Under the pieces are notes generated by a model. It was given only the letters and a program-made list of their open reading frames with translations. It made no database searches and was not told the origin of the DNA. From contig DASTOM010000024.1 of NCBI GenBank assembly GCA_035762545.1, positions 81,559 to 145,558 of the forward strand: a stretch of DNA of 64,000 nt, in the 5' to 3' direction. Below, in pieces: positions 2 through 8,035 of this stretch; the stretch's first letter is position 1; each line of letters opens with the position of its first letter. The position numbers were made by a program, and so were the translations under genes. Source of the stretch: Acidimicrobiia bacterium (GTDB lineage: Bacteria; Actinomycetota; Acidimicrobiia; Spongiisociales; ZC4RG35).

Positions 2-1060
2 ATCGACGTCCGCGAGTCGGACGAGTTCGGTCAGGGTGCGGTTGCCGGAGCCCTGTTCCTGCCCCGTGGTCTCCTCGAACGTGACATCGATGCGATGGTT
101 CCCGATCGCGCCACTCCGCTGGTTCTGTACTGCGCGGCCGGCAACCGCTCGGCGTTGGCCGCCGCGACCCTCCTCGACCTCGGGTATGAAAGTGTCACTT
201 CGATGATCGGCGGGTTCGACGGTTGGAAGGCCGCCGGCCTGCCCTGGGGGGACCCGACCGGGCTCACCGCCGAACAGAAGACCCGATACGCCCGACACGT
301 GCGACTCCCCGAAGTCGGCGAGGCCGGTCAGCTCCGCCTCCTCGAAGCACGCGTCCTCCTCATTGGCGCCGGAGGCCTCGGATCACCGGCGGCCCTCTAT
401 CTGGCCGCGGCAGGCGTAGGCACCATCGGGATCGTCGATGACGACGTGGTCGACTCCTCGAACCTGCAGCGTCAGGTGATCCACAACGTCGAGCGGATCG
501 GAATGGCAAAGACCGATTCGGCCCGGGAGACGCTTACCGCACTCAACCCCGACGTGAAGGTCGAGACCCATCGGGAACGCCTCCTCGCCGGCAGCGCCTT
601 GCGGATCATGAGCGGCTACGACGTCGTGGTGGACGGTGGCGACAACTTCCCGACCCGATACCTGGTCAATGACGCCGCCCTTCACCTCGGTGTCCCCGTT
701 GTCCACGGTTCGATCTTCCGATTCGAGGGCCAGGTCTCGGTGTTCTCGCCGTGGGAGGGGCCTTGTTACCGCTGCCTCCATCCGGAGGCCCCGCCACCGG
801 AGGTTGCTCCTTCGTGTGCTGAAGCCGGGGTTTTCGGGGTCCTCCCGGGAGTGATCGGCTCGATCCAGGCGATGGAGACGATCAAGCTCCTGCTCGGTAT
901 CGGCGACACCCTTCTGGGTCGTCTCATGGTCTATGACGCCCTGGAACAGGACTTCGCCACGATGACCGTGAAACGAGACCCGGATTGTGCGGCATGTTCC
1001 GATCGGGACCGCCTCCCCGACCTCGTGGACTATGACCAGACCTGCCGCGTTCCTGCCTGA
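2..1060 (+). CDS. Rhodanese-ThiF/MoeB-type E1-like adenylyltransferase (sulfur-carrier-protein activating enzyme); 5' end lies outside window
   Basis: Reading frame is open from the window edge. The rhodanese active-site loop CAAGNRS precedes the ThiF/MoeB nucleotide-binding motif LLIGAGGLGSPAALYLAAAGVG...DDDVVDSSNLQRQ. A C-terminal paired CxxC zinc motif (CYRC...CAAC) is present. Confidence 0.8.
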   Translation: MDVRESDEFGQGAVAGALFLPRGLLERDIDAMVPDRATPLVLYCAAGNRSALAAATLLDLGYESVTSMIGGFDGWKAAGLPWGDPTGLTAEQKTRYARHVRLPEVGEAGQLRLLEARVLLIGAGGLGSPAALYLAAAGVGTIGIVDDDVVDSSNLQRQVIHNVERIGMAKTDSARETLTALNPDVKVETHRERLLAGSALRIMSGYDVVVDGGDNFPTRYLVNDAALHLGVPVVHGSIFRFEGQVSVFSPWEGPCYRCLHPEAPPPEVAPSCAEAGVFGVLPGVIGSIQAMETIKLLLGIGDTLLGRLMVYDALEQDFATMTVKRDPDCAACSDRDRLPDLVDYDQTCRVPA

Positions 1061-1400
1061 CGATCTCGGCCAGGAGATCATCGACCACTGTCTCTCCGAG
1101 TTACCCAACGAGGGCTGCGGGCTCGTGGCGGTATCGGTCGGAAGGGTGGTCAGCGTCTACCCCACGTCGAACTCGGACTCGTCCCCGAGCTCGTTCACGA
1201 TCCCTCCTGAGGAGCACTACGCCGCCTTGACCGACGCCGAGTCGAACGGCTGGGAGATAGGTGGTGTGTTCCACTCCCACCCTGCCGGACCGGCGGCGAT
1301 GTCGTCGACCGACCTCGCCAGGGCGCTGGAACCGGACTGGACCTACTTCGTTGTCGGACTCGACGGCGACCGCCCGACGATCTCGGCCCACACGATCTGA
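1032..1400 (+). CDS. JAMM/MPN+ (Mov34) family metalloprotease, Mec/CysO-deconjugating type
   Basis: JAMM motif is present: E in NEGCGLV followed by HSHPAGPAAMSSTD (HxH-x7-S-x2-D). The ATG at 1032 overlaps the stop of the upstream E1-like gene. Size is about 120 aa. Confidence 0.75.
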   Translation: MTRPAAFLPDDLGQEIIDHCLSELPNEGCGLVAVSVGRVVSVYPTSNSDSSPSSFTIPPEEHYAALTDAESNGWEIGGVFHSHPAGPAAMSSTDLARALEPDWTYFVVGLDGDRPTISAHTI

Positions 1401-1519
1401 GTCAGCAAGCACGATGGGAGTTGGCTCCGCAACCAGTCGTAACGCGTCCGGTCACCCTTCCCCTCCGCCACGTAGCGCTGCCGGAAGGCTTTCGGCGGCG
1501 TCCCGATCCGGCTCGGGGG

Positions 1520-1552
1520 TTGTTGTCCGTTAACGGCCGGTCACGGACAACA
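1520..1552 (+). promoter_or_regulatory. Palindrome ttgttgtccgt-N12-acggacaaca in the intergenic region between the JAMM gene and the MOSC gene
   Basis: 11/10-bp inverted repeat with a loop containing TTAACGGCCGG. Could be a terminator for the upstream operon or an operator for the MOSC gene. Confidence 0.3.
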
Positions 1553-1598
1553 TGGTGATCATGGTGGCTCTGCCGCATGCACAGGCCATACTGTTCCG

Positions 1599-2135
1599 AT
1601 GCGCCGAACCACGGAAGAGCTCGAGAGCTTCCTCGCCAACATCCTCGCCGCTCCCAAGGACGCCGGTCCGATCGAGATGATCGTGCGTCGCCCCGGGGAG
1701 GATCAGCGGGAGATCGTCGAGACCGCTGAGCTCAGCGCCAGCGAAGGCCTTGTCGGAGACAACTGGATCATGAGGGTGGACGAGACCGGTGAGCCGCACA
1801 TGGCCGCCCAACTGACACTGATGAACGCCCGGGTCGCCGACGCGGTCGCTTTGACCCGTGATCGCTGGCCCCTGGCCGGCGACCAGATCTACGTCGACCT
1901 CGACATCTCACACGAGAACCTCCCGGCAGGCTCCCGTATCAAGGTCGGCGAGGCGGTAGTCGAGATCTCAGAGGTGCCCCACACCGGGTGTGCCAAGTTC
2001 TCGGGGAGGTTCGGCGCCGACGCCCTCCGCTTCGCCAACGTCGGCCCCGGAAGGGAAAACCGTTTTCGCGGAGTGAACGCCTTCATCGTCGAAGGTGGTT
2101 CGATCGCCGTCGGCGACAAGGTCACCAAGCTATAG
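1599..2135 (+). CDS. MOSC domain-containing protein (YiiM-like)
   Basis: About 178 aa with conserved Cys in PHTGCAKF and the beta-barrel layout typical of MOSC proteins. Preceded by a 200-bp intergenic region with a palindrome. Confidence 0.55.
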   Translation: MRRTTEELESFLANILAAPKDAGPIEMIVRRPGEDQREIVETAELSASEGLVGDNWIMRVDETGEPHMAAQLTLMNARVADAVALTRDRWPLAGDQIYVDLDISHENLPAGSRIKVGEAVVEISEVPHTGCAKFSGRFGADALRFANVGPGRENRFRGVNAFIVEGGSIAVGDKVTKL

Positions 2136-2162
2136 CCGACTCCCCCGGGTCGGCTCGACCCA

Positions 2163-3203
2163 TCAGATTGCAGCGAACCAGCCCATCGCTCCCCGATCGG
2201 CGAGCCAGTGCTGGTGCGGATGGAACATGTACCTCCCGTAGTCCGGGAGGCTGAACTCGATCATGGCACGCTGACCCTGGGCGAGGGCGATGGTGTCGTC
2301 CCTGAAGGTGGCGCTGTCACCGATACCGGCGGGATACACATCGAATGTCTGGGAATGAAGATGGAACGACGCCAGCGACTCGTATTCGAGGAGATTGACG
2401 ATGTACGCCCTGACCGGCTCGTCTCTGCTCACCTTGATCGGGAACTGATCGAAGAATCCGGCGATTCCGTTCCAAGCCACCACGCCATTGCGGCCGATGG
2501 TCTCGTTGGAGAAACCGGACAGGAGCAGGGAGACCTCTTGAGCGGGACGCCGCCCACCCATCGGGTCGACGATCATCATCCCGTAGAGCCCTCGGGCGAT
2601 GTGCTCGGCCAGCGGTGCAGTGTGGCAGTGGTAGGGATGCAACCCGGCGGGGCCGGCGTCGATCTCGTAGGTGAAGTCCCCACCCGGCGGGATCGGCTCC
2701 CAACCATCCATCTCGGGTCTGTGGGCGCCATGGAAGTGGATCGAGTGGGGATGCCCGGTGTGGTTCTCCAGGTGAATTCTGAGGACATCCCCCTCCGAGG
2801 CCCTGATGATGGGTGCGGGAACCGTCCCGTTGTAGGTCCACGCCTCGATGAAGACCTCGTGGCCCACCTCGATGAGACGCTCCTCCACCCGCATCTCGAT
2901 CTCCCTGACCGTTCCCGGGGGTCGACCGTCAGGTGGAGGGGGGAGGGTGAGTTCGTCGAGCGCATTTGCGCCGAGACCGCGTGGCGGTCCGAATCCCTGC
3001 CCGTAGATGGTGTCGAGAACGTCTTCACCGACAGTCATCTCGTGGTTCGACTGATAGACGTCTTCGGTCGGGGACGGGGACGGGGACGTGGCGTCGCGGG
3101 CCGCGGCCCCGATCAACGACCCTCCGAGCAGTGCGGCCCCACCGAGACCTGCCTTCTTGAGGAGGTCGCGCCTGGACACCCCTTCCGGGGACGAATCGGT
3201 CAT
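2163..3203 (-). CDS. Tat-secreted two-domain multicopper oxidase (cupredoxin fold)
   Basis: Twin-arginine signal SRRDLLKKAGLGGAALL. Copper ligand motifs HPHSIHFHG (HxHG), YHCHTAPLAEH...GMM (T1/T3 site) and FHLHSQ (HxH). Mature protein of about 345 aa fits a two-domain MCO. Start 3203 overlaps the stop (3206) of the upstream gene. Confidence 0.75.
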   Translation of the reverse strand: MTDSSPEGVSRRDLLKKAGLGGAALLGGSLIGAAARDATSPSPSPTEDVYQSNHEMTVGEDVLDTIYGQGFGPPRGLGANALDELTLPPPPDGRPPGTVREIEMRVEERLIEVGHEVFIEAWTYNGTVPAPIIRASEGDVLRIHLENHTGHPHSIHFHGAHRPEMDGWEPIPPGGDFTYEIDAGPAGLHPYHCHTAPLAEHIARGLYGMMIVDPMGGRRPAQEVSLLLSGFSNETIGRNGVVAWNGIAGFFDQFPIKVSRDEPVRAYIVNLLEYESLASFHLHSQTFDVYPAGIGDSATFRDDTIALAQGQRAMIEFSLPDYGRYMFHPHQHWLADRGAMGWFAAI

Positions 3204-3205
3204 TC

Positions 3206-4909
3206 CTAGACGATTCCCCCGACGAGCATCCCGAGGAAGACGAACACGAGGTAGACGCCCATCCCCCCGGCGAGGAGGACCCAGCGGTAGGTGGCGGGGA
3301 TCCTGCTCCGACCGAACACGTAGTAGCCGATCACCCCGAGGAAAGGGATGGCCAGGATGGCGAGCATCCACCCGACGACGGCACCCTTGCTGAGGTCGTC
3401 ACGTCTCGAGATGAGCTCCCAGATCGCGATCACCACCCATGCGGCATACAGGGCGAGCGGTAGCACGTAGGCGTAGAGGCCCAGGAAGCCTCCGATCGTC
3501 GAGGCGAAGGTGACGCCCATGATGTTGAATCCCTTCTGTTGGGTGACTTCGATTCCTTCTGGAGTCGCCGGCAACTCGATCGAGTCGATGTCCGGCTCGG
3601 CCGCGGCGAACACATTCACCGCGGGGACTACTGGAGCCTCGGCCCCGCCCGGCATCTGAGGCTGGGGCTCGGGGTGGGGCAGATCGCCGTGGAAGACCTC
3701 CGGGGTCATTTCGAGATTCGCTTCTATGGCCCTGCCGAGGAGGGCGCTGAGCGACCCGATCTCGAAGAGGGCCGGGAACCGCACGCCTTCACACCTCTGG
3801 GTGAACTGCATCGCCGGGGGCATCGTCTCGACGATCGAGTTCCCGGCGAAACAGGTTCCCGATTGGGCGGGTCCCGACATGGTGAGACTGGCGAGCCCCA
3901 CACCTTCGACAGTGTTGTCGACGATCGTGTTGCCTGCCGTCATCCAGACGTTCTTGTCGACCAGCGGATGGAGATAGATGCCCGACATCGGATGGTTGAC
4001 CACCAGATTCCTGGCGACGAAGAAGTCACGTGCGCCGGTCAGGATCATGCCGTTGCCCTGAGCGATCCACTGGGCGCCTTTGAACGGGAAAGTCCGGTGC
4101 CCGTTGTCGTGGATGACGTTGCCGACGACCGTCACGTCCTCGACCGGCGGCAACAGCTCTCCGTCCCACGAGTTGGGGGAGATCCCAGATCCGTTGTACC
4201 GGAACACATTGTTGACCAGGTACATGTTGGTCGAGGCATTCGAGCCGGAGTAGCCGAGTCCCGAGTACTCGCCTATCGAGTCGGTGATCACGGCGTCGCA
4301 CGGATTGCACTGGCCGACGTAGAAGGCAGCATCGGGTGACCCGGTGGCATAGGAGTGTTCGAACAACCCGTCGCCGGAGTCGAAGGCGTAGATCCCGTAG
4401 TCACCGTTGTTGACCGCGGTCACATAAGAGGCGCGGTAGCCCCGCACCCCGGACCAGTAGACCCCGTTGAGTGTGTGGTTTCGGGTCGTCAGGTTCTCCA
4501 CGACCACTCCGTCGGTGAACAGCGCCTGGATGCCGTTGGCCCGCTCGAACTCGCCGTCGATGATCACCTCGTTGCGGTCCACGCCCCGGATGGTCACACC
4601 CGGAGTTCTCACATCCACCGCCTCGCGATAGATGCCACGGTCGATGAGGACCAGGTCACCGGGCTCGGCTGCATCGACGGCCGCCTGGATTGTCGGATAG
4701 TCACCCGGAACATCCCTCGTGTTGCCGGACCACTCTGCTGGCGACTCCGTGGACGGGTCGCCCACGGCGGCGGGGGAAGGGTTCCCGGGTGGCGGGCCGG
4801 CGCAGGCCGCAAGCGCCAGGGCTCCGGCGACGATGAGGAGAACGAATCCCCCCCGGCGATCACCCCTCGCCGACAATGAGGGTCCCGGCCATTCCGTCAC
4901 CTTCAGCAT
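3206..4909 (-). CDS. Lipoprotein with right-handed parallel beta-helix repeats (NosD-like periplasmic copper-binding fold) fused to a C-terminal PLDc_N-type membrane domain
   Basis: Lipobox LALAAC after RR-containing n-region. Long run of Gly/Asn-rich beta-helix repeats (NGDYGIY, NGSGIS, VVGNVIHDNG, GNTIVDNTVEG). C-terminal 90 aa with two TM helices and motif WVVIAIWELISRRDDLSKGAVVGWMLAILAIPFLGVIGYYVFG matching the PLD-nuclease N-terminal domain family. Confidence 0.65.
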   Translation of the reverse strand: MLKVTEWPGPSLSARGDRRGGFVLLIVAGALALAACAGPPPGNPSPAAVGDPSTESPAEWSGNTRDVPGDYPTIQAAVDAAEPGDLVLIDRGIYREAVDVRTPGVTIRGVDRNEVIIDGEFERANGIQALFTDGVVVENLTTRNHTLNGVYWSGVRGYRASYVTAVNNGDYGIYAFDSGDGLFEHSYATGSPDAAFYVGQCNPCDAVITDSIGEYSGLGYSGSNASTNMYLVNNVFRYNGSGISPNSWDGELLPPVEDVTVVGNVIHDNGHRTFPFKGAQWIAQGNGMILTGARDFFVARNLVVNHPMSGIYLHPLVDKNVWMTAGNTIVDNTVEGVGLASLTMSGPAQSGTCFAGNSIVETMPPAMQFTQRCEGVRFPALFEIGSLSALLGRAIEANLEMTPEVFHGDLPHPEPQPQMPGGAEAPVVPAVNVFAAAEPDIDSIELPATPEGIEVTQQKGFNIMGVTFASTIGGFLGLYAYVLPLALYAAWVVIAIWELISRRDDLSKGAVVGWMLAILAIPFLGVIGYYVFGRSRIPATYRWVLLAGGMGVYLVFVFLGMLVGGIV

Positions 4910-5237
4910 TTCCGTGCAAGGTACAGAAGAACGTGTAGGTGCCGGCGGTGTCGTACGTCAAGAGTGCCTCGTCACCCTCGAGTTGCTCGAGGCTGCCGAA
5001 CACCGACTCGGTGGACCATTGGCCGCCGGCGTCGACGGCATTGTGCGGGTTGCGACCGGCTCCTACCCAGGTGACGGTGCCACCGACCGGGATCTCGATC
5101 TCGGTGTACTGGAAGCGATTGTCGTACATTGCGACGGTGACGTCCTGGGCCTCGATGGACTCGCCCTCGTCGGACCCCCCACACGCGACCAAGAGGATGG
5201 CACCCGCGAGTGCGAGTGCCCGAAGATGCGATTTCAC
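4860..5237 (-). CDS. Cupredoxin (plastocyanin/azurin-like type-1 copper) lipoprotein
   Basis: Lipoprotein signal LLVAC. Type-1 copper ligands in PHNAVD...FFCTLHGN...M. Length about 125 aa. Translationally coupled to flanking genes. Confidence 0.75.
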   Translation of the reverse strand: MKSHLRALALAGAILLVACGGSDEGESIEAQDVTVAMYDNRFQYTEIEIPVGGTVTWVGAGRNPHNAVDAGGQWSTESVFGSLEQLEGDEALLTYDTAGTYTFFCTLHGNAEGDGMAGTLIVGEG

Positions 5238-5791
5238 TCTTTGGAACCTCCGAACAGGCCCTTCAACCAGGACCAGAGTGATGAGAAGAACAGCGAGATA
5301 CCTCTGACCTCGCCGGCTGCGATGCCTTCTGCCTCCCGCTCAGAGGAGGCCCCCAATTTTCCCTCGAGACATCCGACGAAGTCGCCGATCAACCGCTTCG
5401 ACATCTCGTTGATGAGACCGGTTCGACCGAACTGAGCCGCCGGCCCCGAGAGCGTGACATCGGCGTCCACGGTCACTTTGGAGCCCGCGGGGTCGTCGAA
5501 TATCCCGTAAACGACTTTCACCTGACCGCGGCTCCCCCCCTTCTTGTCGACGCCCTTGCCCTCGATGGTCGCGGTGTGGTTGGCCTCGTCAGGGCTGATC
5601 GTCGCCGTGCCCTCGAAGGCCGCCGTCATCGGGCCGAGCTTGACTGCCAGTGTGCCGTCGTAGCTGCCGTCGTCATGGGCATCGGTCAACTCGGCGCCGG
5701 GAAGGCACTGGGCAACGGAAGGCACGTCCTGGAAGAAGTCCCAGACCTCAGCCGGCGGCCGCGCAACGACGAATTCCTGTGAGATCTTCAT
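5234..5791 (-). CDS. SRPBCC family protein, CoxG-like (carbon monoxide dehydrogenase subunit G family)
   Basis: N-terminus MKISQEFVVARPPAEVWDFFQDVPSVAQCLPG matches the CoxG signature. AGGAGA Shine-Dalgarno 5 nt upstream of ATG. Stop overlaps the cupredoxin start. Confidence 0.7.
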   Translation of the reverse strand: MKISQEFVVARPPAEVWDFFQDVPSVAQCLPGAELTDAHDDGSYDGTLAVKLGPMTAAFEGTATISPDEANHTATIEGKGVDKKGGSRGQVKVVYGIFDDPAGSKVTVDADVTLSGPAAQFGRTGLINEMSKRLIGDFVGCLEGKLGASSEREAEGIAAGEVRGISLFFSSLWSWLKGLFGGSKE

Positions 5792-5848
5792 TTTTCTCCT
5801 GCTGGATTGATGAAGGGTTGCGAGCGTAGCGGCCGGTTCGCCCTTACC

Positions 5849-6325
5849 TCAATGGTGGCGGTTGTCTCCGGAGAGCAATTGCAGCGCATGAGGGAGGAGT
5901 TCCAGCACCGACTCCAGATTCTCTGTGGCCCCCTTGGGGGAGCCAGGGAGATTGATGACGAGCGTGGTGCCGATGGTTCCCGCTGCGGCCCGGGTCAGGG
6001 CCGCCATCGGAGTCGACTCGAGGCCTTTGGCGATCATCGCTTGCACCAGACCGGGTGCCTGCCTCTCGAGTAGGGCAACGGTTGCCTCAGGGGTCACGTC
6101 GCGCAGACCGAATCCGGTGCCCCCGGTGGTCACGACCAGCTCGGCCGTGGCACAGGCGCGAAGAATCGACGCCTGAATCTCCTCGAAGTCGTCAGACACG
6201 AGGTCACGGCCGACCTCGTAGCCCGCACCGCGGAGAACGCTTTCCAGGGCCTCACCCGAGCCGTCCTCACGTTCGCCAGCGGACACGCCGTCGCTGACGG
6301 TGATGACGACTACGTGCCGCCCCAC
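5849..6325 (-). CDS. mogA: Molybdenum cofactor biosynthesis protein MogA/MoaB (molybdopterin adenylyltransferase family)
   Basis: VVVITVSDG...TTGGTG...GTIGTTLVINLPGSP motifs typical of the MogA/MoaB fold. I trimmed the ORF start to the GTG at 6325 to give the usual 158-aa length; the longer N-terminal extension is Pro/Arg-rich. Confidence 0.65.
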   Translation of the reverse strand: MGRHVVVITVSDGVSAGEREDGSGEALESVLRGAGYEVGRDLVSDDFEEIQASILRACATAELVVTTGGTGFGLRDVTPEATVALLERQAPGLVQAMIAKGLESTPMAALTRAAAGTIGTTLVINLPGSPKGATENLESVLELLPHALQLLSGDNRHH

Positions 6326-7149
6326 GCCCTCGGGTCGATCGAGACCCCGCCCTGGAGAATGGTGAGGTTGAACACGAGCAGGACGAGCAGGAAGGTGGCC
6401 AGACCCCATGGCCACGGCGTTGTTCTCTCGTCCTCGGGACCGATGACGGTGGCGGTACCTGGGGCCGCGGCGAGGGTGAACAGAAACATCACGGCGGCCA
6501 CGGGAAGACCGGGCAGAACCAGACCCTCGCTGTCAGGAAGGAAGAACGGTATGGCCGCGAACGCCGAAGCCACGGCAGGGATGAGTGCGATCCACAAGGC
6601 AAATACGAGACGCTTGCGACCGGTGCTCACCAGTCGCCGATGCGGGGTGAAAGCGAGGAAGGCGGCTGCAGCCGACAGAGCGATGAGGAGCAGACCGATA
6701 CCGCCGCCCGCGGAGATGACGACATCGAGACCTGGCGGAGCGTCGAGAGTTGCGTAAGCCAGGGCGAGTGGGTCCGTGTCCGAGAAGGGAAGGAACACCG
6801 CCTGAGTTAGAGCCTGCCTCAGGACGTGAAGCAGCATCCAGAGCAGTACCAGACGCGAGACACCGTGACCGCGCTGAGTCGGGTAGACGAAGAGTGAGAA
6901 GAGACCAACGATGAGACAGAGGATGAACCCACCGGCCCATGCGAGGTCGCTGGCACCGGTGAATTCGACCCGGTTGTTGTAGAGCACGGCATCCCCGCCC
7001 AGGATCTCGGCAAGGATGCCGTCGCCGAGATCGTCGAGCAATTGGGCGATGACGATGCCGAATGTCGAGGCCAGGGCTGAGGCCAATACCAGGGGAACAC
7101 CGATATGAGCTACGGCAGGAGGCGATTCCTTGGAGGTCTCGGTAGTCAC
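6310..7149 (-). CDS. Hypothetical integral membrane protein (about 8 predicted TM segments)
   Basis: Continuous hydrophobic segments throughout. No recognisable catalytic motif. Confidence 0.45.
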   Translation of the reverse strand: MTTETSKESPPAVAHIGVPLVLASALASTFGIVIAQLLDDLGDGILAEILGGDAVLYNNRVEFTGASDLAWAGGFILCLIVGLFSLFVYPTQRGHGVSRLVLLWMLLHVLRQALTQAVFLPFSDTDPLALAYATLDAPPGLDVVISAGGGIGLLLIALSAAAAFLAFTPHRRLVSTGRKRLVFALWIALIPAVASAFAAIPFFLPDSEGLVLPGLPVAAVMFLFTLAAAPGTATVIGPEDERTTPWPWGLATFLLVLLVFNLTILQGGVSIDPRAWGGT

Positions 7150-7210
7150 TGGCGGAAATGCTAAACCAGAATGGTCCGGCTTCCAGGGGTCTCGGTTACC
7201 GTCAGCCCGA

Positions 7211-8035
7211 ATGAGCCAGGAGTACGAGGCGGTCTACCTCCCGGGTGACGCGCCGGGGTCTTACATCTCGACACCACTGGCCAACGCCGGGTGGTACGAC
7301 GAGGGCCAACATGGCGGCGCCTTCGCCGCGCTGGTCGTAGGCCACATCGAGACAGAGGTTCCCACCCTCACCGAGATGCAGGTCAACCGGGCGACCATCG
7401 AGATCTTTCGTGTGATTCCACTCGTCGAGCTTCGGGTCGACACCGAGGTCGTCAGAGAGGGCAAGCGAATCCAAACGGTCGTCGCCCGGGTCTTCGACAC
7501 CGAGGGGACGCTGATGTCCCTGGCGACGGTCCAGCGGTTGCGAGTCGCCGATCTCAGAGTGCCGGACGACGCCCGACCGCCCGAGGTCGATTTCCCTCTC
7601 CCCCGGCACGTGGCTCCGAAGAGCGTCGAGGGCTGGGGAGTCGGTGAGCCGGGGAAGACGATGTTTCATCGTCACGCCATCGAGGTCCGAGAAGCGGTAG
7701 GCGGCTTCGATGCCAAGGGTCCGGGCAGCGTCTGGATCAGACTCACCAAGCCGATGGTCGCCGGCCGCGAAGTGACACCTCTGCAACGAGCCGTCGCCAC
7801 CGCCGACTTCTGCAACGGAGTCAGCCGCGGGCTCGACATGGGAGCGTGGGTGTTCATGAACCCGGATCTCACCGTTCACCTGTCCCGCTATCCCCGCGGC
7901 GAGTGGATCGGGTTGTCGGCTGGGTCGTCTTACGGTGACATCGGACGAGGTGTTGCGACCGGGACCCTCTGGGACGAGTCCGGGTGGCTGGGCCGGTCTA
8001 CTCAGAGTCTCTACCTCGATCGGATCGAAGGGTGA
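7211..8035 (+). CDS. Thioesterase-family (hotdog-fold, acyl-CoA thioesterase-like) protein
   Basis: Double hotdog-like layout with GGAFAALVVGH motif. Start chosen at MSQEYEAV (ATG 7211). Confidence 0.5.
   Translation: MSQEYEAVYLPGDAPGSYISTPLANAGWYDEGQHGGAFAALVVGHIETEVPTLTEMQVNRATIEIFRVIPLVELRVDTEVVREGKRIQTVVARVFDTEGTLMSLATVQRLRVADLRVPDDARPPEVDFPLPRHVAPKSVEGWGVGEPGKTMFHRHAIEVREAVGGFDAKGPGSVWIRLTKPMVAGREVTPLQRAVATADFCNGVSRGLDMGAWVFMNPDLTVHLSRYPRGEWIGLSAGSSYGDIGRGVATGTLWDESGWLGRSTQSLYLDRIEG

Follow-up and report, generated by a model that had tools for sequence, protein, structure and literature searches.

A conserved gene cluster for a cupredoxin, a membrane-tethered beta-helix protein and a multicopper oxidase encodes a candidate extracytoplasmic redox module

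The window, a 64,000-nt stretch of DNA from an Acidimicrobiia bacterium, carries a cluster of copper-protein genes encoding a module that spans marine actinobacteria to pathogenic Leptospira and is uncharacterized; a literature search returned nothing on this cupredoxin/beta-helix/multicopper oxidase (MCO) system. As judged from the encoded sequences, the core of the module is a membrane-tethered protein that combines a plastocyanin-like cupredoxin with a beta-helix of pectin-lyase fold and a PLDc_N anchor of three helices, predicted to form one lipoprotein in most lineages. The extracytoplasmic copper module proposed in the initial annotation is borne out by its conservation across 80 loci. 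We tentatively read it as a blue-copper redox module in which electrons would pass along the outer face of the membrane from the beta-helix to the type-1 (T1) cupredoxin, the MCO and O2, an interpretation to which we give slightly less than an even chance. The features of the locus are listed in Table 1.

Table 1 Features of the copper-protein locus in Acidimicrobiia bacterium GCA_035762545.1, contig DASTOM010000024.1 (positions within the window).
Feature	Position	Strand	Basis
Locus of four co-directional ORFs	2163-5791	minus	
MCO gene	2163..3203	(-)	Pfam Cu-oxidase_3 + Cu-oxidase_2
Twin-arginine motif SRRDLLK of MCO signal peptide	3156..3176	(-)	TIGR01409
beta-helix::PLDc_N gene	3206..4909	(-)	Pfam Beta_helix + NosD (partial) + PLDc_N
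C-terminal membrane anchor, three predicted TM helices	3221..3499	(-)	PLDc_N match 3308-3436
Right-handed parallel beta-helix domain	3842..4720	(-)	Secondary structure from AF2 model
CxxC turn C201-N-P-C204 (GQCNPC) connecting two beta-strands of the same rung	4298..4309	(-)	
Lipoprotein signal peptide of beta-helix protein (lipobox LAAC, Cys36)	4802..4909	(-)	Read from sequence
Cupredoxin lipoprotein gene	4860..5237	(-)	Pfam PF00127
coxG	5234..5791	(-)	Pfam PF06240
Shine-Dalgarno AGGAG, 4 nt before coxG ATG	5796..5800	(-)	Read from sequence
MogA/MoaB-like molybdopterin-binding protein gene	5849..6415	(-)	Pfam MoCF_biosynth 3.8e-28, NCBIfam matches
Polytopic membrane protein gene (279 aa), overlaps start of mogA-like gene	6310..7149	(-)	

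The initial annotation had placed four minus-strand genes at this locus behind a strong Shine-Dalgarno sequence. The four ORFs and the AGGAG element were found as described, and Pfam agreed with the domain call for each protein. Of the overlaps of 4, 50 and 4 nt that it reported, the first two stand and the third is in fact a 2-nt gap. The GTG start of the cupredoxin gene lies on the coxG stop codon (GTGA), and the cupredoxin and beta-helix genes overlap by 50 nt when the latter starts at ATG 4909, or by 17 nt from TTG 4876, a start that agrees with the ~ 550-aa length of homologues. The beta-helix/MCO junction reads TAG-ga-ATG, the codon at 3209 being CTA and not a start codon. The longest ORF of the MCO extends to 3371, and the NCBI start for the identical protein HEU4320075 is ATG 3203. 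The gene string is treated as a putative operon on the basis of its layout, and it may be longer than four genes, with two more upstream genes on the same strand.

The cupredoxin is a plastocyanin-like type-1 lipoprotein of 125 aa with an LVAC lipobox containing Cys19. It matches Copper-bind PF00127 (1.7e-8, 35.2 bits vs a cut-off of 21.2), and its T1 ligands are His65, Cys105, His108 and Met116, an H/C/H/M set that is invariant in 77/77 fused homologues. The family profile matches plastocyanin (1.4e-13) and, as the second-best hit in the PDB, the dangler cupredoxin of 9CCK (6e-13).

The beta-helix protein (567 aa from ATG 4909, 556 aa from TTG 4876) combines Beta_helix (8e-15), NosD (3.7e-8) and PLDc_N (7.9e-7; PF13396, 29.4 bits vs a cut-off of 23.3) in one chain, and has 2091 homologues at E<=1e-5, with 304 clusters at 50% identity and E<1e-30. 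Its AF2 model has a pLDDT of 91.6 and a pTM of 0.87, with the anchor helices at residues 460-552, where W514 and P522 are invariant. The closest solved folds by structure search are AlgE4 and AlgE6, a generic pectin-lyase-type fold. Invariant columns were taken from 72 sequences of several phyla and alignment A2; 56 of 391 columns are invariant at 42-71% identity across phyla. They include a polar row (D170, Y171, Y174, D193, Y197, S221, N224, N246, D249, E251 and H306) that lies on successive rungs in two high-confidence models (pLDDT 89.7 and 91.6). The CxxC turn is 100% conserved in the 72 sequences, and the GQCNPC motif is seen in the majority of 150 family representatives, cupredoxin-less forms among them; it may therefore be a structural disulfide. 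No redox cofactor site could be named in the beta-helix, which has one near-invariant His only.

The MCO is a type-C two-domain enzyme of 346 aa (Cu-oxidase_3 1.4e-24, Cu-oxidase_2 1.1e-23). The Tat signal attributed to it earlier passes the TIGR01409 cut-off (20.4 vs 16.7 bits); among orthologues the motif is RR in 34 and RK in 18, the latter all from spirochaetes. H153, C193 and H201 serve as its T1 ligands; the axial residue is Leu206, which suggests a T1 site of the high-potential type, and the trinuclear cluster is provided by H156, H158, H192, H194, H281, H283, H328 and H330. These T1 ligands and the eight trinuclear His are kept in 50-53 of 54 orthologues, and the enzyme is presumably a trimer. 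Among solved structures, its closest relatives are 3GDC (1.2e-65), 7RAB (5e-58) and 9CCK/Nmar_1354 (4.5e-43). In NirK the catalytic Asp is in the HNIDFH motif, at the position which we take to be His156 in the window MCO. The copper-site motifs, proposed earlier as the means of separating NirK from other two-domain MCOs, gave a full trinuclear ligand set, and assignment as NirK was rejected: the TIGR02376 match reaches 76.8 of the required 296.3 bits and covers domain 1 only, and a complete eight-His site is present instead.

Synteny was analyzed in 80 species-level loci, 72 of which had room downstream for counting the MCO. The cupredoxin and beta-helix::PLDc_N genes are adjacent or fused in every locus where the contig allows, forming one ORF in 47/80 loci and adjacent overlapping genes in 30 more. 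Among the fused loci are those of other Actinomycetota, Leptospira, Gemmatimonadota and Proteobacteria; Pfam agrees on the fused architecture, and NCBI annotates a 673-aa fused protein in Leptospira isolates. The MCO gene lies directly downstream in 52/72 loci, again including Actinomycetota, Leptospira, Gemmatimonadota and Proteobacteria. In 20/72 the core gene is solitary, lacking an MCO gene in its vicinity, and the MCO is not beside the core gene in three close relatives (L001, L007 and L026). A SCO1/SenC copper chaperone gene follows the MCO in 21 loci and is part of the operon in Leptospira and Proteobacteria. Conservation across phyla decisively contradicts the outcome set beforehand as refuting, namely an adjacency confined to this genome.

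The split genes of the window's Acidimicrobiia clade appear to derive from a fused gene. Distant relatives have a single fused ORF with one N-terminal lipobox only, and in the split clade the beta-helix half seems to have acquired a separate lipoprotein signal peptide. The segment encoding this peptide, whose Cys36 is 99% conserved, lies across the cupredoxin gene's 3' end; the peptide itself is probably a product of gene fission. Single neighbouring genes were also recorded in individual lineages, namely a sensor kinase transcribed divergently from the module in Leptospira, a PMT_2 glycosyltransferase after the fused gene in one locus, and, in one case, a stand-alone beta-helix relative sharing an operon with another metalloenzyme, a Tat-exported DyP peroxidase.

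The CoxG/SRPBCC protein (185 aa; COXG PF06240 2e-18, 66.9 bits vs a cut-off of 22.2) has the same sequence as NCBI entry HEU4320078, annotated as 'SRPBCC family protein', and is presumed to be cytoplasmic since it has no signal peptide. Its C-terminal amphipathic helix, SLFFSSLWSWLKGLF, is conserved. The presence of such a protein in a copper operon had been flagged as unusual; it is indeed present here, but coxG lies upstream of the cupredoxin gene in about 30 of the 80 loci, all within one Acidimicrobiia clade, and is a lineage-specific accessory outside the conserved core. The protein possibly acts on the cytoplasmic side of the beta-helix protein's membrane anchor. Upstream, 57 nt from coxG, the mogA-like gene keeps its position in 28 loci and may be co-transcribed with the copper genes, also outside the conserved copper core. 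The 279-aa membrane protein gene is kept in 27 loci of the same clade, and its product has no Pfam or NCBIfam match.

In the proposed electron chain, the invariant groove of the beta-helix (the Asp, Tyr and Asn row with the CxxC turn) would bind a substrate or partner and take electrons from it, giving that domain a putative catalytic or substrate-binding role. The electrons would then pass to the tethered T1 copper of the cupredoxin, next to the MCO's own T1 copper, and finally to O2 at the trinuclear cluster. The initial annotation offered either a small electron-transfer chain or a maturation system for the MCO. The former fits better, given the intact cupredoxin T1 ligands, the retained MCO copper ligands and the precedent of Nmar_1354, and the latter is weakened by the core genes without a nearby MCO. 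The same loci, together with the three close relatives, mean that the chain cannot always end on this MCO. Further observations count against the chain: the beta-helix offers no nameable redox cofactor site, its CxxC motif recurs in relatives without a cupredoxin, its closest solved folds belong to non-redox polysaccharide epimerases and lyases, and SCO1 in many operons suits copper delivery equally well.

Copper delivery is central to an unlikely alternative, in which the anchored beta-helix is a NosD-type assembly platform that docks SCO1, where present, and the apo-MCO, perhaps also the apo-cupredoxin, and inserts copper on the outer face without an ABC ATPase. Copper enzymes of the Tat pathway, NosZ and CueO among them, receive their metal after export, and the platform would account for the SCO1/SenC gene after the MCO, for membrane tethering resembling that of NosD via NosY, and for the DyP peroxidase operon of the beta-helix relative. 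The 'NosD-like' label itself is weak. The protein passes the Pfam NosD gathering score (33.5 vs 23.6 bits), in favour of the platform, but the NCBIfam NosD model gives 31.5 bits, its cut-off being 300, over the N-terminal cap alone, and the closest folds are AlgE enzymes. NosD was not among the PDB sequences found by the family profile at E<=10, nor in the Foldseek top 50 for the window's own model. As the initial annotation had stated for nitrous oxide reductase, nosZ was not found within the 64,000-nt window, and neither were nosF, nosY or nosL. The solitary core genes also argue against a platform, and an invariant, complete T1 electron-transfer site would serve no evident end on an assembly factor.

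A role in copper homeostasis or detoxification is somewhat less likely still. The MCO would then be a periplasmic cuprous oxidase, as are CueO and CutO, and the cupredoxin-beta-helix protein and SCO1 would bind or shuttle copper. Every part is a copper protein outside the cytoplasm, copper resistance involves cupredoxin-fold proteins, for instance CopC and CopI, and both SCO1 in the Leptospira and Proteobacteria operons and the divergent Leptospira sensor kinase would suit this role. Against it, the MCO appears to lack the Met-rich region usual for cuprous oxidases, and the cupredoxin ligand set is of the classical electron-transfer type, not the chaperone type. No CopA/CopB-type ATPase, CusCBA or CsoR/CueR gene adjoins the locus in the window, and the setting is one of housekeeping and molybdenum-cofactor genes, not a metal-resistance island.

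It is improbable that the beta-helix is an epimerase- or lyase-like enzyme modifying a uronate polymer of the cell envelope or exopolysaccharide, with the copper proteins acting on the same polymer or being separate neighbours. In favour of this reading, alginate and pectate lyases come next among the fold matches, successive rungs carry invariant Asp, Glu, Arg, Tyr and Asn as in polysaccharide-active beta-helices, and the PMT_2 gene of one locus would agree. However, there is no sequence match to a polysaccharide lyase, epimerase or GH family, the N-terminal cap motif alone hitting pectin methylesterases, and no polysaccharide-synthesis genes are kept nearby. The covalent fusion of a T1 copper domain in 47 loci speaks for redox chemistry as an integral part of the beta-helix protein.

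A nitrogen-oxide enzyme, either a NirK-type nitrite reductase or an NH2OH-oxidizing MCO like Nmar_1354 with the cupredoxin as electron partner, is very improbable: JGI pipelines label many orthologues 'nitrite reductase (NO-forming)', TIGR02376 is the top NCBIfam match (1.8e-21) and Nmar_1354 turns NH2OH into HNO (PMC11761707), but that NirK match falls far below its cut-off in domain 1 only, His156 belongs to the conserved eight-His trinuclear site, the hosts are aerobic heterotrophs, and nitrification and denitrification genes are not in the window.

Among known systems, NosD of NosDFY-NosL-NosZ (PDB 7O0Y) is likewise an outer-face right-handed beta-helix held by a membrane partner, shares the N-terminal cap motif and is encoded with a Tat-exported copper enzyme. 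Unlike that system, the present cluster has no ABC transporter, NosL or NosZ, its beta-helix misses the NCBIfam threshold and is closer to other folds, and NosD has no fused cupredoxin or PLDc_N anchor. The mannuronan C5-epimerase A-modules of AlgE4 and AlgE6 (PDB 2PYG, 5LW3) have no detectable sequence relationship to the window protein; AlgE enzymes are non-redox secreted proteins that depend on calcium, with RTX modules and without a cupredoxin or membrane anchor. The best NCBIfam match of the beta-helix domain is TIGR03805 (74.4 bits over positions 1-250 of the 314 in the model), whose cut-off of 141.5 bits is missed by the window protein and ten stand-alone relatives. A diheme c-type cytochrome presumably accompanies members of TIGR03805, which would make them a second case of a beta-helix paired with an electron carrier; a literature search found nothing on this TIGR03805-cytochrome pairing.

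The closest solved MCOs, 3GDC (Arthrobacter sp. FB24, a structural-genomics entry) and 7RAB, share the copper-ligand motifs, axial Leu and two-domain size of the window MCO, and a literature search found no published function for either. The third-closest, Nmar_1354 (MCO4, PDB 9CCK) of Nitrosopumilus maritimus, oxidizes NH2OH to HNO and carries a fused plastocyanin-like dangler cupredoxin at a T1-T1 distance of 13.5 A (PMC11761707). It differs from the present system in being archaeal and from a nitrifier, while the hosts here are bacterial heterotrophs, in its axial Met at T1 in place of Leu206, and in the fusion of its cupredoxin to the MCO, which here is fused to or beside the beta-helix protein, with the MCO a separate Tat substrate. 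Common to both systems are the type-C two-domain core, its four HxH motifs and HCH, and a plastocyanin-like T1 cupredoxin paired with the oxidase, a pairing that in Nmar_1354 is an electron-transfer arrangement as judged from its T1-T1 distance.

Four co-directional open reading frames (ORFs) were read on the minus strand within 2163–5791, and the domains named for each of them in the initial annotation were all borne out by Pfam, as listed in the table with the neighboring genes and individual sites.

Coordinates of the copper cluster, its neighbors and selected sites in the window (MCO, multicopper oxidase)
Feature	Position	Strand	Match or remark
Rhodanese-MoeB/MoeZ-like adenylyltransferase	95–1060		Copper cluster neighbor
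JAMM desampylase-like protein	987–1400		Copper cluster neighbor
MOSC-domain protein	1599–2135		Convergent; copper cluster neighbor
Two-domain MCO	2163–3203	−	Cu-oxidase_3 1.4e-24, Cu-oxidase_2 1.1e-23
Tyr67 of the MCO	3003–3005		Within TIYGQGFGPP, N-terminal extension of the mature protein
beta-helix::PLDc_N protein, 567 aa	3206–4909	−	Beta_helix 8e-15, partial NosD 3.7e-8, C-terminal PLDc_N 7.9e-7
Right-handed beta-helix	3842–4720		AlphaFold model
CxxC turn of the beta-helix	4298–4309		GQCNPC
Plastocyanin/azurin-type cupredoxin	4860–5237	−	Pfam 1.7e-8
coxG	5234–5791	−	Pfam COXG 2e-18
MogA/MoaB-like gene	5849–6415	−	Upstream of coxG, same strand
279-aa polytopic membrane protein	6310–7149	−	Overlaps start of mogA-like gene

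The 4-nt overlap previously described between coxG and the cupredoxin gene was read in the sequence as GTGA, and the 50-nt overlap of the cupredoxin and beta-helix genes was reproduced given a start at ATG 4909; a start at TTG 4876 reduces it to 17 nt and gives a better match to the homologues of about 550 aa. The further 4-nt overlap claimed between the beta-helix and MCO genes is a gap of 2 nt, the sequence reading TAG-ga-ATG. ATG 3203 as the MCO start is also used for HEU4320075, a protein in NCBI of identical sequence that comes from an Acidimicrobiia MAG. A Shine-Dalgarno sequence before coxG was confirmed as AGGAG, 4 nt ahead of the start. Since only 57 nt separate the upstream mogA-like gene from coxG, the transcription unit may comprise six genes, including the mogA-like gene and that of the 279-aa membrane protein. 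A consensus scan of 1500–7600 returned no promoter-like site, and terminator-like hairpins occurred in this interval at chance level only, with none in the mogA-coxG gap. Neither Pfam nor NCBIfam gave a match for the 279-aa membrane protein, which is kept at the same position in 27 related genomes. Genes for molybdenum cofactor and sulfur-carrier functions surround the copper cluster, and the same neighbors recur in related genomes; a molybdoenzyme was not among the genes seen in the window, whose remaining large ORFs are housekeeping genes.

A one-genome-per-species scan yielded 230 relatives of the beta-helix protein, and the best 80 loci of these were analyzed by tblastn with the window proteins and by clustering of all their ORFs. 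Synteny in other genomes, named as a check in the initial annotation, was found for the core, which is kept across phyla: a cupredoxin adjoins the beta-helix::PLDc_N gene in essentially every one of the 80 loci where the contig permits. The two are encoded by a single ORF of 640–700 aa with one N-terminal lipobox in 47 of the 80 loci, and the Copper-bind + Beta_helix + PLDc_N architecture of this fused protein was verified by Pfam. Fused loci occur in other Acidimicrobiia/Actinomycetota, Leptonemataceae, Gemmatimonadota and Gamma-, Alpha- and Deltaproteobacteria, as well as in many Leptospira (among them L. interrogans, L. noguchii, L. borgpetersenii and L. weilii), and a 673-aa fused protein is annotated by NCBI in Leptospira isolate genomes. 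Among the candidates scored, 2091 proteins are related to the core protein at E ≤ 1e-5. The family occurs in at least four bacterial phyla, with hosts that range from Acidimicrobiia of sea and soil to Leptospira pathogens. It is neither covered by a curated model nor represented by a solved structure; the L. interrogans member Q8F5W3 is annotated only as 'Lipoprotein'.

The split arrangement seen in the window is derived, since all 30 split cases fall in the window's Acidimicrobiia clade and two deeper relatives (L031 and L032) already carry coxG upstream while their cupredoxin and beta-helix are still fused. Plausible remnants of this fission are the extra lipoprotein signal peptide and the overlap between cupredoxin stop and beta-helix start; the lipoboxes are LVAC in the window cupredoxin and LAAC in the beta-helix protein. 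A different arrangement was observed in locus L013 (5423–8672), where coxG is followed directly by the beta-helix gene without a cupredoxin gene. In a Steroidobacterales MAG (L077, 5554–7548), an in-frame stop divides a 547-aa cupredoxin-beta-helix portion from a 113-aa PLDc_N portion, a putative split of the three-part protein at its other domain junction in another lineage, or possibly a sequencing error.

In 72 loci the contig leaves at least 1.5 kb for a further gene downstream; the MCO gene comes directly next in 52 of these and is missing in the other 20. The MCO is also lacking in three close relatives of the window locus (L001, L007 and L026), which retain coxG and the genes of the cupredoxin and the beta-helix protein, and in MCO-less genomes no conserved neighbor of the fused gene was found, so that it stands alone. 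In 21 loci, most of them from Leptospira and Proteobacteria, the gene after the MCO encodes a SCO1/SenC copper chaperone; only about 30 loci, all from Acidimicrobiia, have CoxG, the MogA-like gene and the membrane protein of 279 aa. A crude mirror-tree comparison of beta-helix and MCO identities across loci gave r = 0.93 overall, driven by the close clade, and no positive correlation among distant loci (r = −0.37, n = 26); it was therefore rejected as evidence of co-evolution.

The Leptospira loci have a layout of their own, exemplified by L. noguchii (L051, 4109–9999) and common to others of the genus: the fused lipoprotein, a stand-alone 103-aa PLDc_N protein between it and the MCO, the MCO, and then SCO1/SenC. 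A MASE11-HisKA_2 sensor kinase gene is divergently transcribed upstream of this cluster, and the Leptospira MCO carries a Tat-like motif with RK instead of RR. Non-pathogenic members of the genus, such as L. soteropolitanensis (L047), also have relatives of this cluster. In two Acidimicrobiia loci without an adjacent MCO (L081 and L082), a long, nearly gene-free stretch precedes the fused gene; these stretches, one of which contains a LAGLIDADG endonuclease, may be rRNA operons.

CoxG scored 66.9 bits against Pfam PF06240 (cut-off 22.2) over model positions 2–139 of 140, and belongs to that family. It has no signal peptide and possesses a conserved amphipathic C-terminal helix. No coxL/M/S or other xanthine-dehydrogenase-family subunit was present among the large window ORFs scanned or conserved in the related loci, and CoxG was rejected as a sign of CO dehydrogenase because the window holds no Mo-hydroxylase genes. 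Within its clade the gene is closely linked to that of the cupredoxin; it is outside the conserved core.

The cupredoxin is a plastocyanin/azurin-type (T1) family member by PF00127 (35.2 bits, cut-off 21.2), with T1 ligands H65, C105, H108 and M116, none of which varies in any of the 77 homologous domains; in the fused relative P0121 they are H74, C109, H112 and M120. Plastocyanins (1.4e-13) and amicyanins are among the matches of the family profile; since the window protein falls below the equivalog thresholds of both, it is a family member and not a plastocyanin or amicyanin proper.

Whether the MCO is nearer to NirK, a two-domain laccase or bilirubin oxidase, a question raised in the initial annotation, is answered by its ligands and profile scores in favor of a type-C two-domain MCO (2dMCO). 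This class is defined by two cupredoxin domains, T1 His/Cys/His ligands in domain 1 only, and eight histidines for an inter-subunit trinuclear cluster. The T1 ligands H153, C193 and H201 all lie in domain 1 (Cu-oxidase_3), and four HxH motifs (H156/158, H192/194, H281/283 and H328/330) were located; in domain 2 the motif is HPH, with Pro replacing Cys. The copper ligands are kept in 50–53 of 54 orthologues, and the axial position is a non-coordinating Leu in 48 of the 54. By these features the MCO is assigned to the type-C class, with a complete predicted ligand set for a trinuclear O2-reducing cluster. Its nearest solved sequences are 3GDC (1.2e-65), 7RAB (5e-58) and 9CCK (4.5e-43), and by analogy with these relatives it would be a copper-bound, O2-reducing homotrimer. 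The MCO homology search listed only close Acidimicrobiia relatives among the top 120 matches. The Tat signal SRRDLLK was recognized by TIGR01409 (20.4 bits, cut-off 16.7), and the RR or RK of the motif is kept in 52 orthologues. Tyr67, outside both Pfam domains, is kept in 53 of 54.

Identity as NirK was rejected on both score and motif. The NirK model TIGR02376 gave 76.8 bits against a threshold of 296.3, with a match over domain 1 only. In NirK the catalytic Asp is the D of the HNxDFH motif; the corresponding sequence here is HSIHFH, which places the cluster ligand His156 at that position. Many MCO orthologues (P0462, P0473, P0474, P0488, P0489 and others) are named 'nitrite reductase (NO-forming)' by JGI automated annotation, and these proteins have the full trinuclear ligand set and score below the NirK equivalog threshold. 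It is probable that nirK is thus systematically over-called in metagenome bins of Acidimicrobiia, and such labels probably inflate Acidimicrobiia nirK counts in metagenomic nitrogen-cycle surveys.

The beta-helix protein was modeled by AlphaFold with a pLDDT of 91.6 and a pTM of 0.87, and P0121, a fused relative, with values of 89.7 and 0.82. In the predicted layout a signal helix is followed by the right-handed beta-helix, a linker rich in Pro, and three membrane helices with PLDc_N. The anchor was assigned to PLDc_N (PF13396) at 29.4 bits (cut-off 23.3), with helices at residues 460–552 in the AlphaFold model.

The NosD-like label given to this protein in the initial annotation holds as far as generic repeats and a weak Pfam match are concerned, and fails on family threshold, gene context and nearest fold. 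Pfam PF05048 (NosD) scored 33.5 against a low gathering threshold of 23.6, covering only model positions 12–172 of 212; the curated NosD family TIGR04247 scored 31.5 bits against a cut-off of 300, over residues 74–192 only. No nosZ, nosF/nosY ABC transporter or nosL was found in the window, where the flanking genes encode CoxG, the cupredoxin, the MCO, MOSC, MogA and the membrane protein, and no ABC genes are conserved across the 80 related loci. Foldseek with the window model ranked AlgE4 and AlgE6 ahead of lyases and tailspikes, while NosD was absent from the top 50 and so is not the nearest solved fold. On these scores 'NosD-like' is a description of generic repeats, not of membership.

Membership among AlgE-type mannuronan C5-epimerases or polysaccharide lyases was likewise rejected, the likeness being at the level of fold only: when the beta-helix profile was compared with PDB sequences, it matched no epimerase or lyase at E ≤ 10, and its sole hits, to pectin methylesterases, were confined to their N-terminal cap and assign no function. 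The best curated model, TIGR03805 (parallel beta-helix), gave 74.4 bits against a threshold of 141.5, and ten stand-alone beta-helix relatives, at 63–96 bits, also fall below it. By these comparisons with NosD, PDB sequences and TIGR03805, the domain is a distinct, uncurated beta-helix family.

The domain is under unusually strong constraint: 56 of 391 columns are invariant at 42–71% identity across phyla. The invariant polar residues (D170, Y171, Y174, D193, Y197, S221, N224, N246, D249, E251 and H306) and an invariant CxxC turn lie on consecutive rungs in the models. The clefts of polysaccharide-active beta-helices sit at the same position. The CxxC is present in most of 150 family representatives, including stand-alone forms of 400–480 aa without cupredoxin or anchor, which makes it a mark of the family as a whole, not of the copper fusion in particular. 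The genomic contexts of stand-alone relatives are heterogeneous (amidase, methyltransferase, an unknown lipoprotein with a DyP peroxidase, and others), and no general rule was found among them. In the actinobacterial locus L084 (6001–9169), the gene of a stand-alone beta-helix relative, a 431-aa lipoprotein with the CxxC kept, overlaps that of an unknown 233-aa lipoprotein, and this second gene overlaps one for a DyP-type peroxidase with a Tat signal. Here, too, a member of the beta-helix family is paired with a redox metalloenzyme that is exported.

Fusion and synteny together indicate that the cupredoxin and beta-helix::PLDc_N parts work jointly at the outer membrane face, and synteny makes the 2dMCO a frequent though dispensable partner of the core protein. 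An electron-transfer chain is favored on the strength of the invariant T1 site and the precedent of Nmar_1354. Electrons would pass from a site associated with the beta-helix to the tethered T1 copper, from there to the T1 copper of the MCO, and on through the trinuclear cluster to O2; we infer this direction of flow. In hosts without the MCO, the cupredoxin would need another acceptor. The part played by the beta-helix would be catalytic, substrate-binding or that of a docking scaffold. The most specific form of the proposal, which we consider possible but rather doubtful, is that the cupredoxin-beta-helix-PLDc_N protein represents a new class of extracytoplasmic oxidoreductase, in which the beta-helix, of pectin-lyase fold, would bind its substrate or catalyze through the invariant Asp/Tyr groove and CxxC, and the tethered blue copper would wire it to a dedicated two-domain MCO as terminal oxidase. 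If so, it would be, to our knowledge, the first redox-wired beta-helix enzyme.

The main rival, a metallation platform in the style of NosD, is made plausible by the SCO1 genes of 21 loci, but the core gene also occurs alone and has an electron-transfer site fused into its product, both of which speak against it. Roles in copper detoxification, polysaccharide modification or nitrogen-oxide chemistry are less well supported than either.

Returning to the electron-transfer chain, the gene fusion leads us to expect physical cooperation between a blue-copper electron carrier and a beta-helix, a pairing of which we know no example in copper enzymology. If confirmed, the chain would be a new way to dispose of electrons on O2 outside the cytoplasm and would supply a physiological partner for type-C two-domain MCOs of the 3GDC type; no published function was found for 3GDC. 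In the full-text library searched, no paper describing this gene set was found, and no family model in Pfam or NCBIfam describes either the fused protein or its association with a type-C 2dMCO.

The closest comparison is with 9CCK, which is Nmar_1354 of Nitrosopumilus maritimus, an enzyme coupling NH2OH oxidation to O2 reduction (PMC11761707). It is a 2dMCO to which a 'dangler' cupredoxin is fused, the T1 sites of dangler and oxidase being 13.5 Å apart (PMC11761707), whereas the window cupredoxin is encoded by a separate gene. The dangler is the second-best PDB match of the cupredoxin family profile (6e-13), and this match, together with the dangler geometry, gives a structural precedent for a plastocyanin-like cupredoxin feeding this 2dMCO lineage. 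Each domain of the cluster belongs to a known superfamily, and a chain from a cupredoxin to an MCO is a known kind of system; what appears to be new is the fusion of cupredoxin, beta-helix and PLDc_N in one protein, and the association of that protein with a type-C two-domain MCO.
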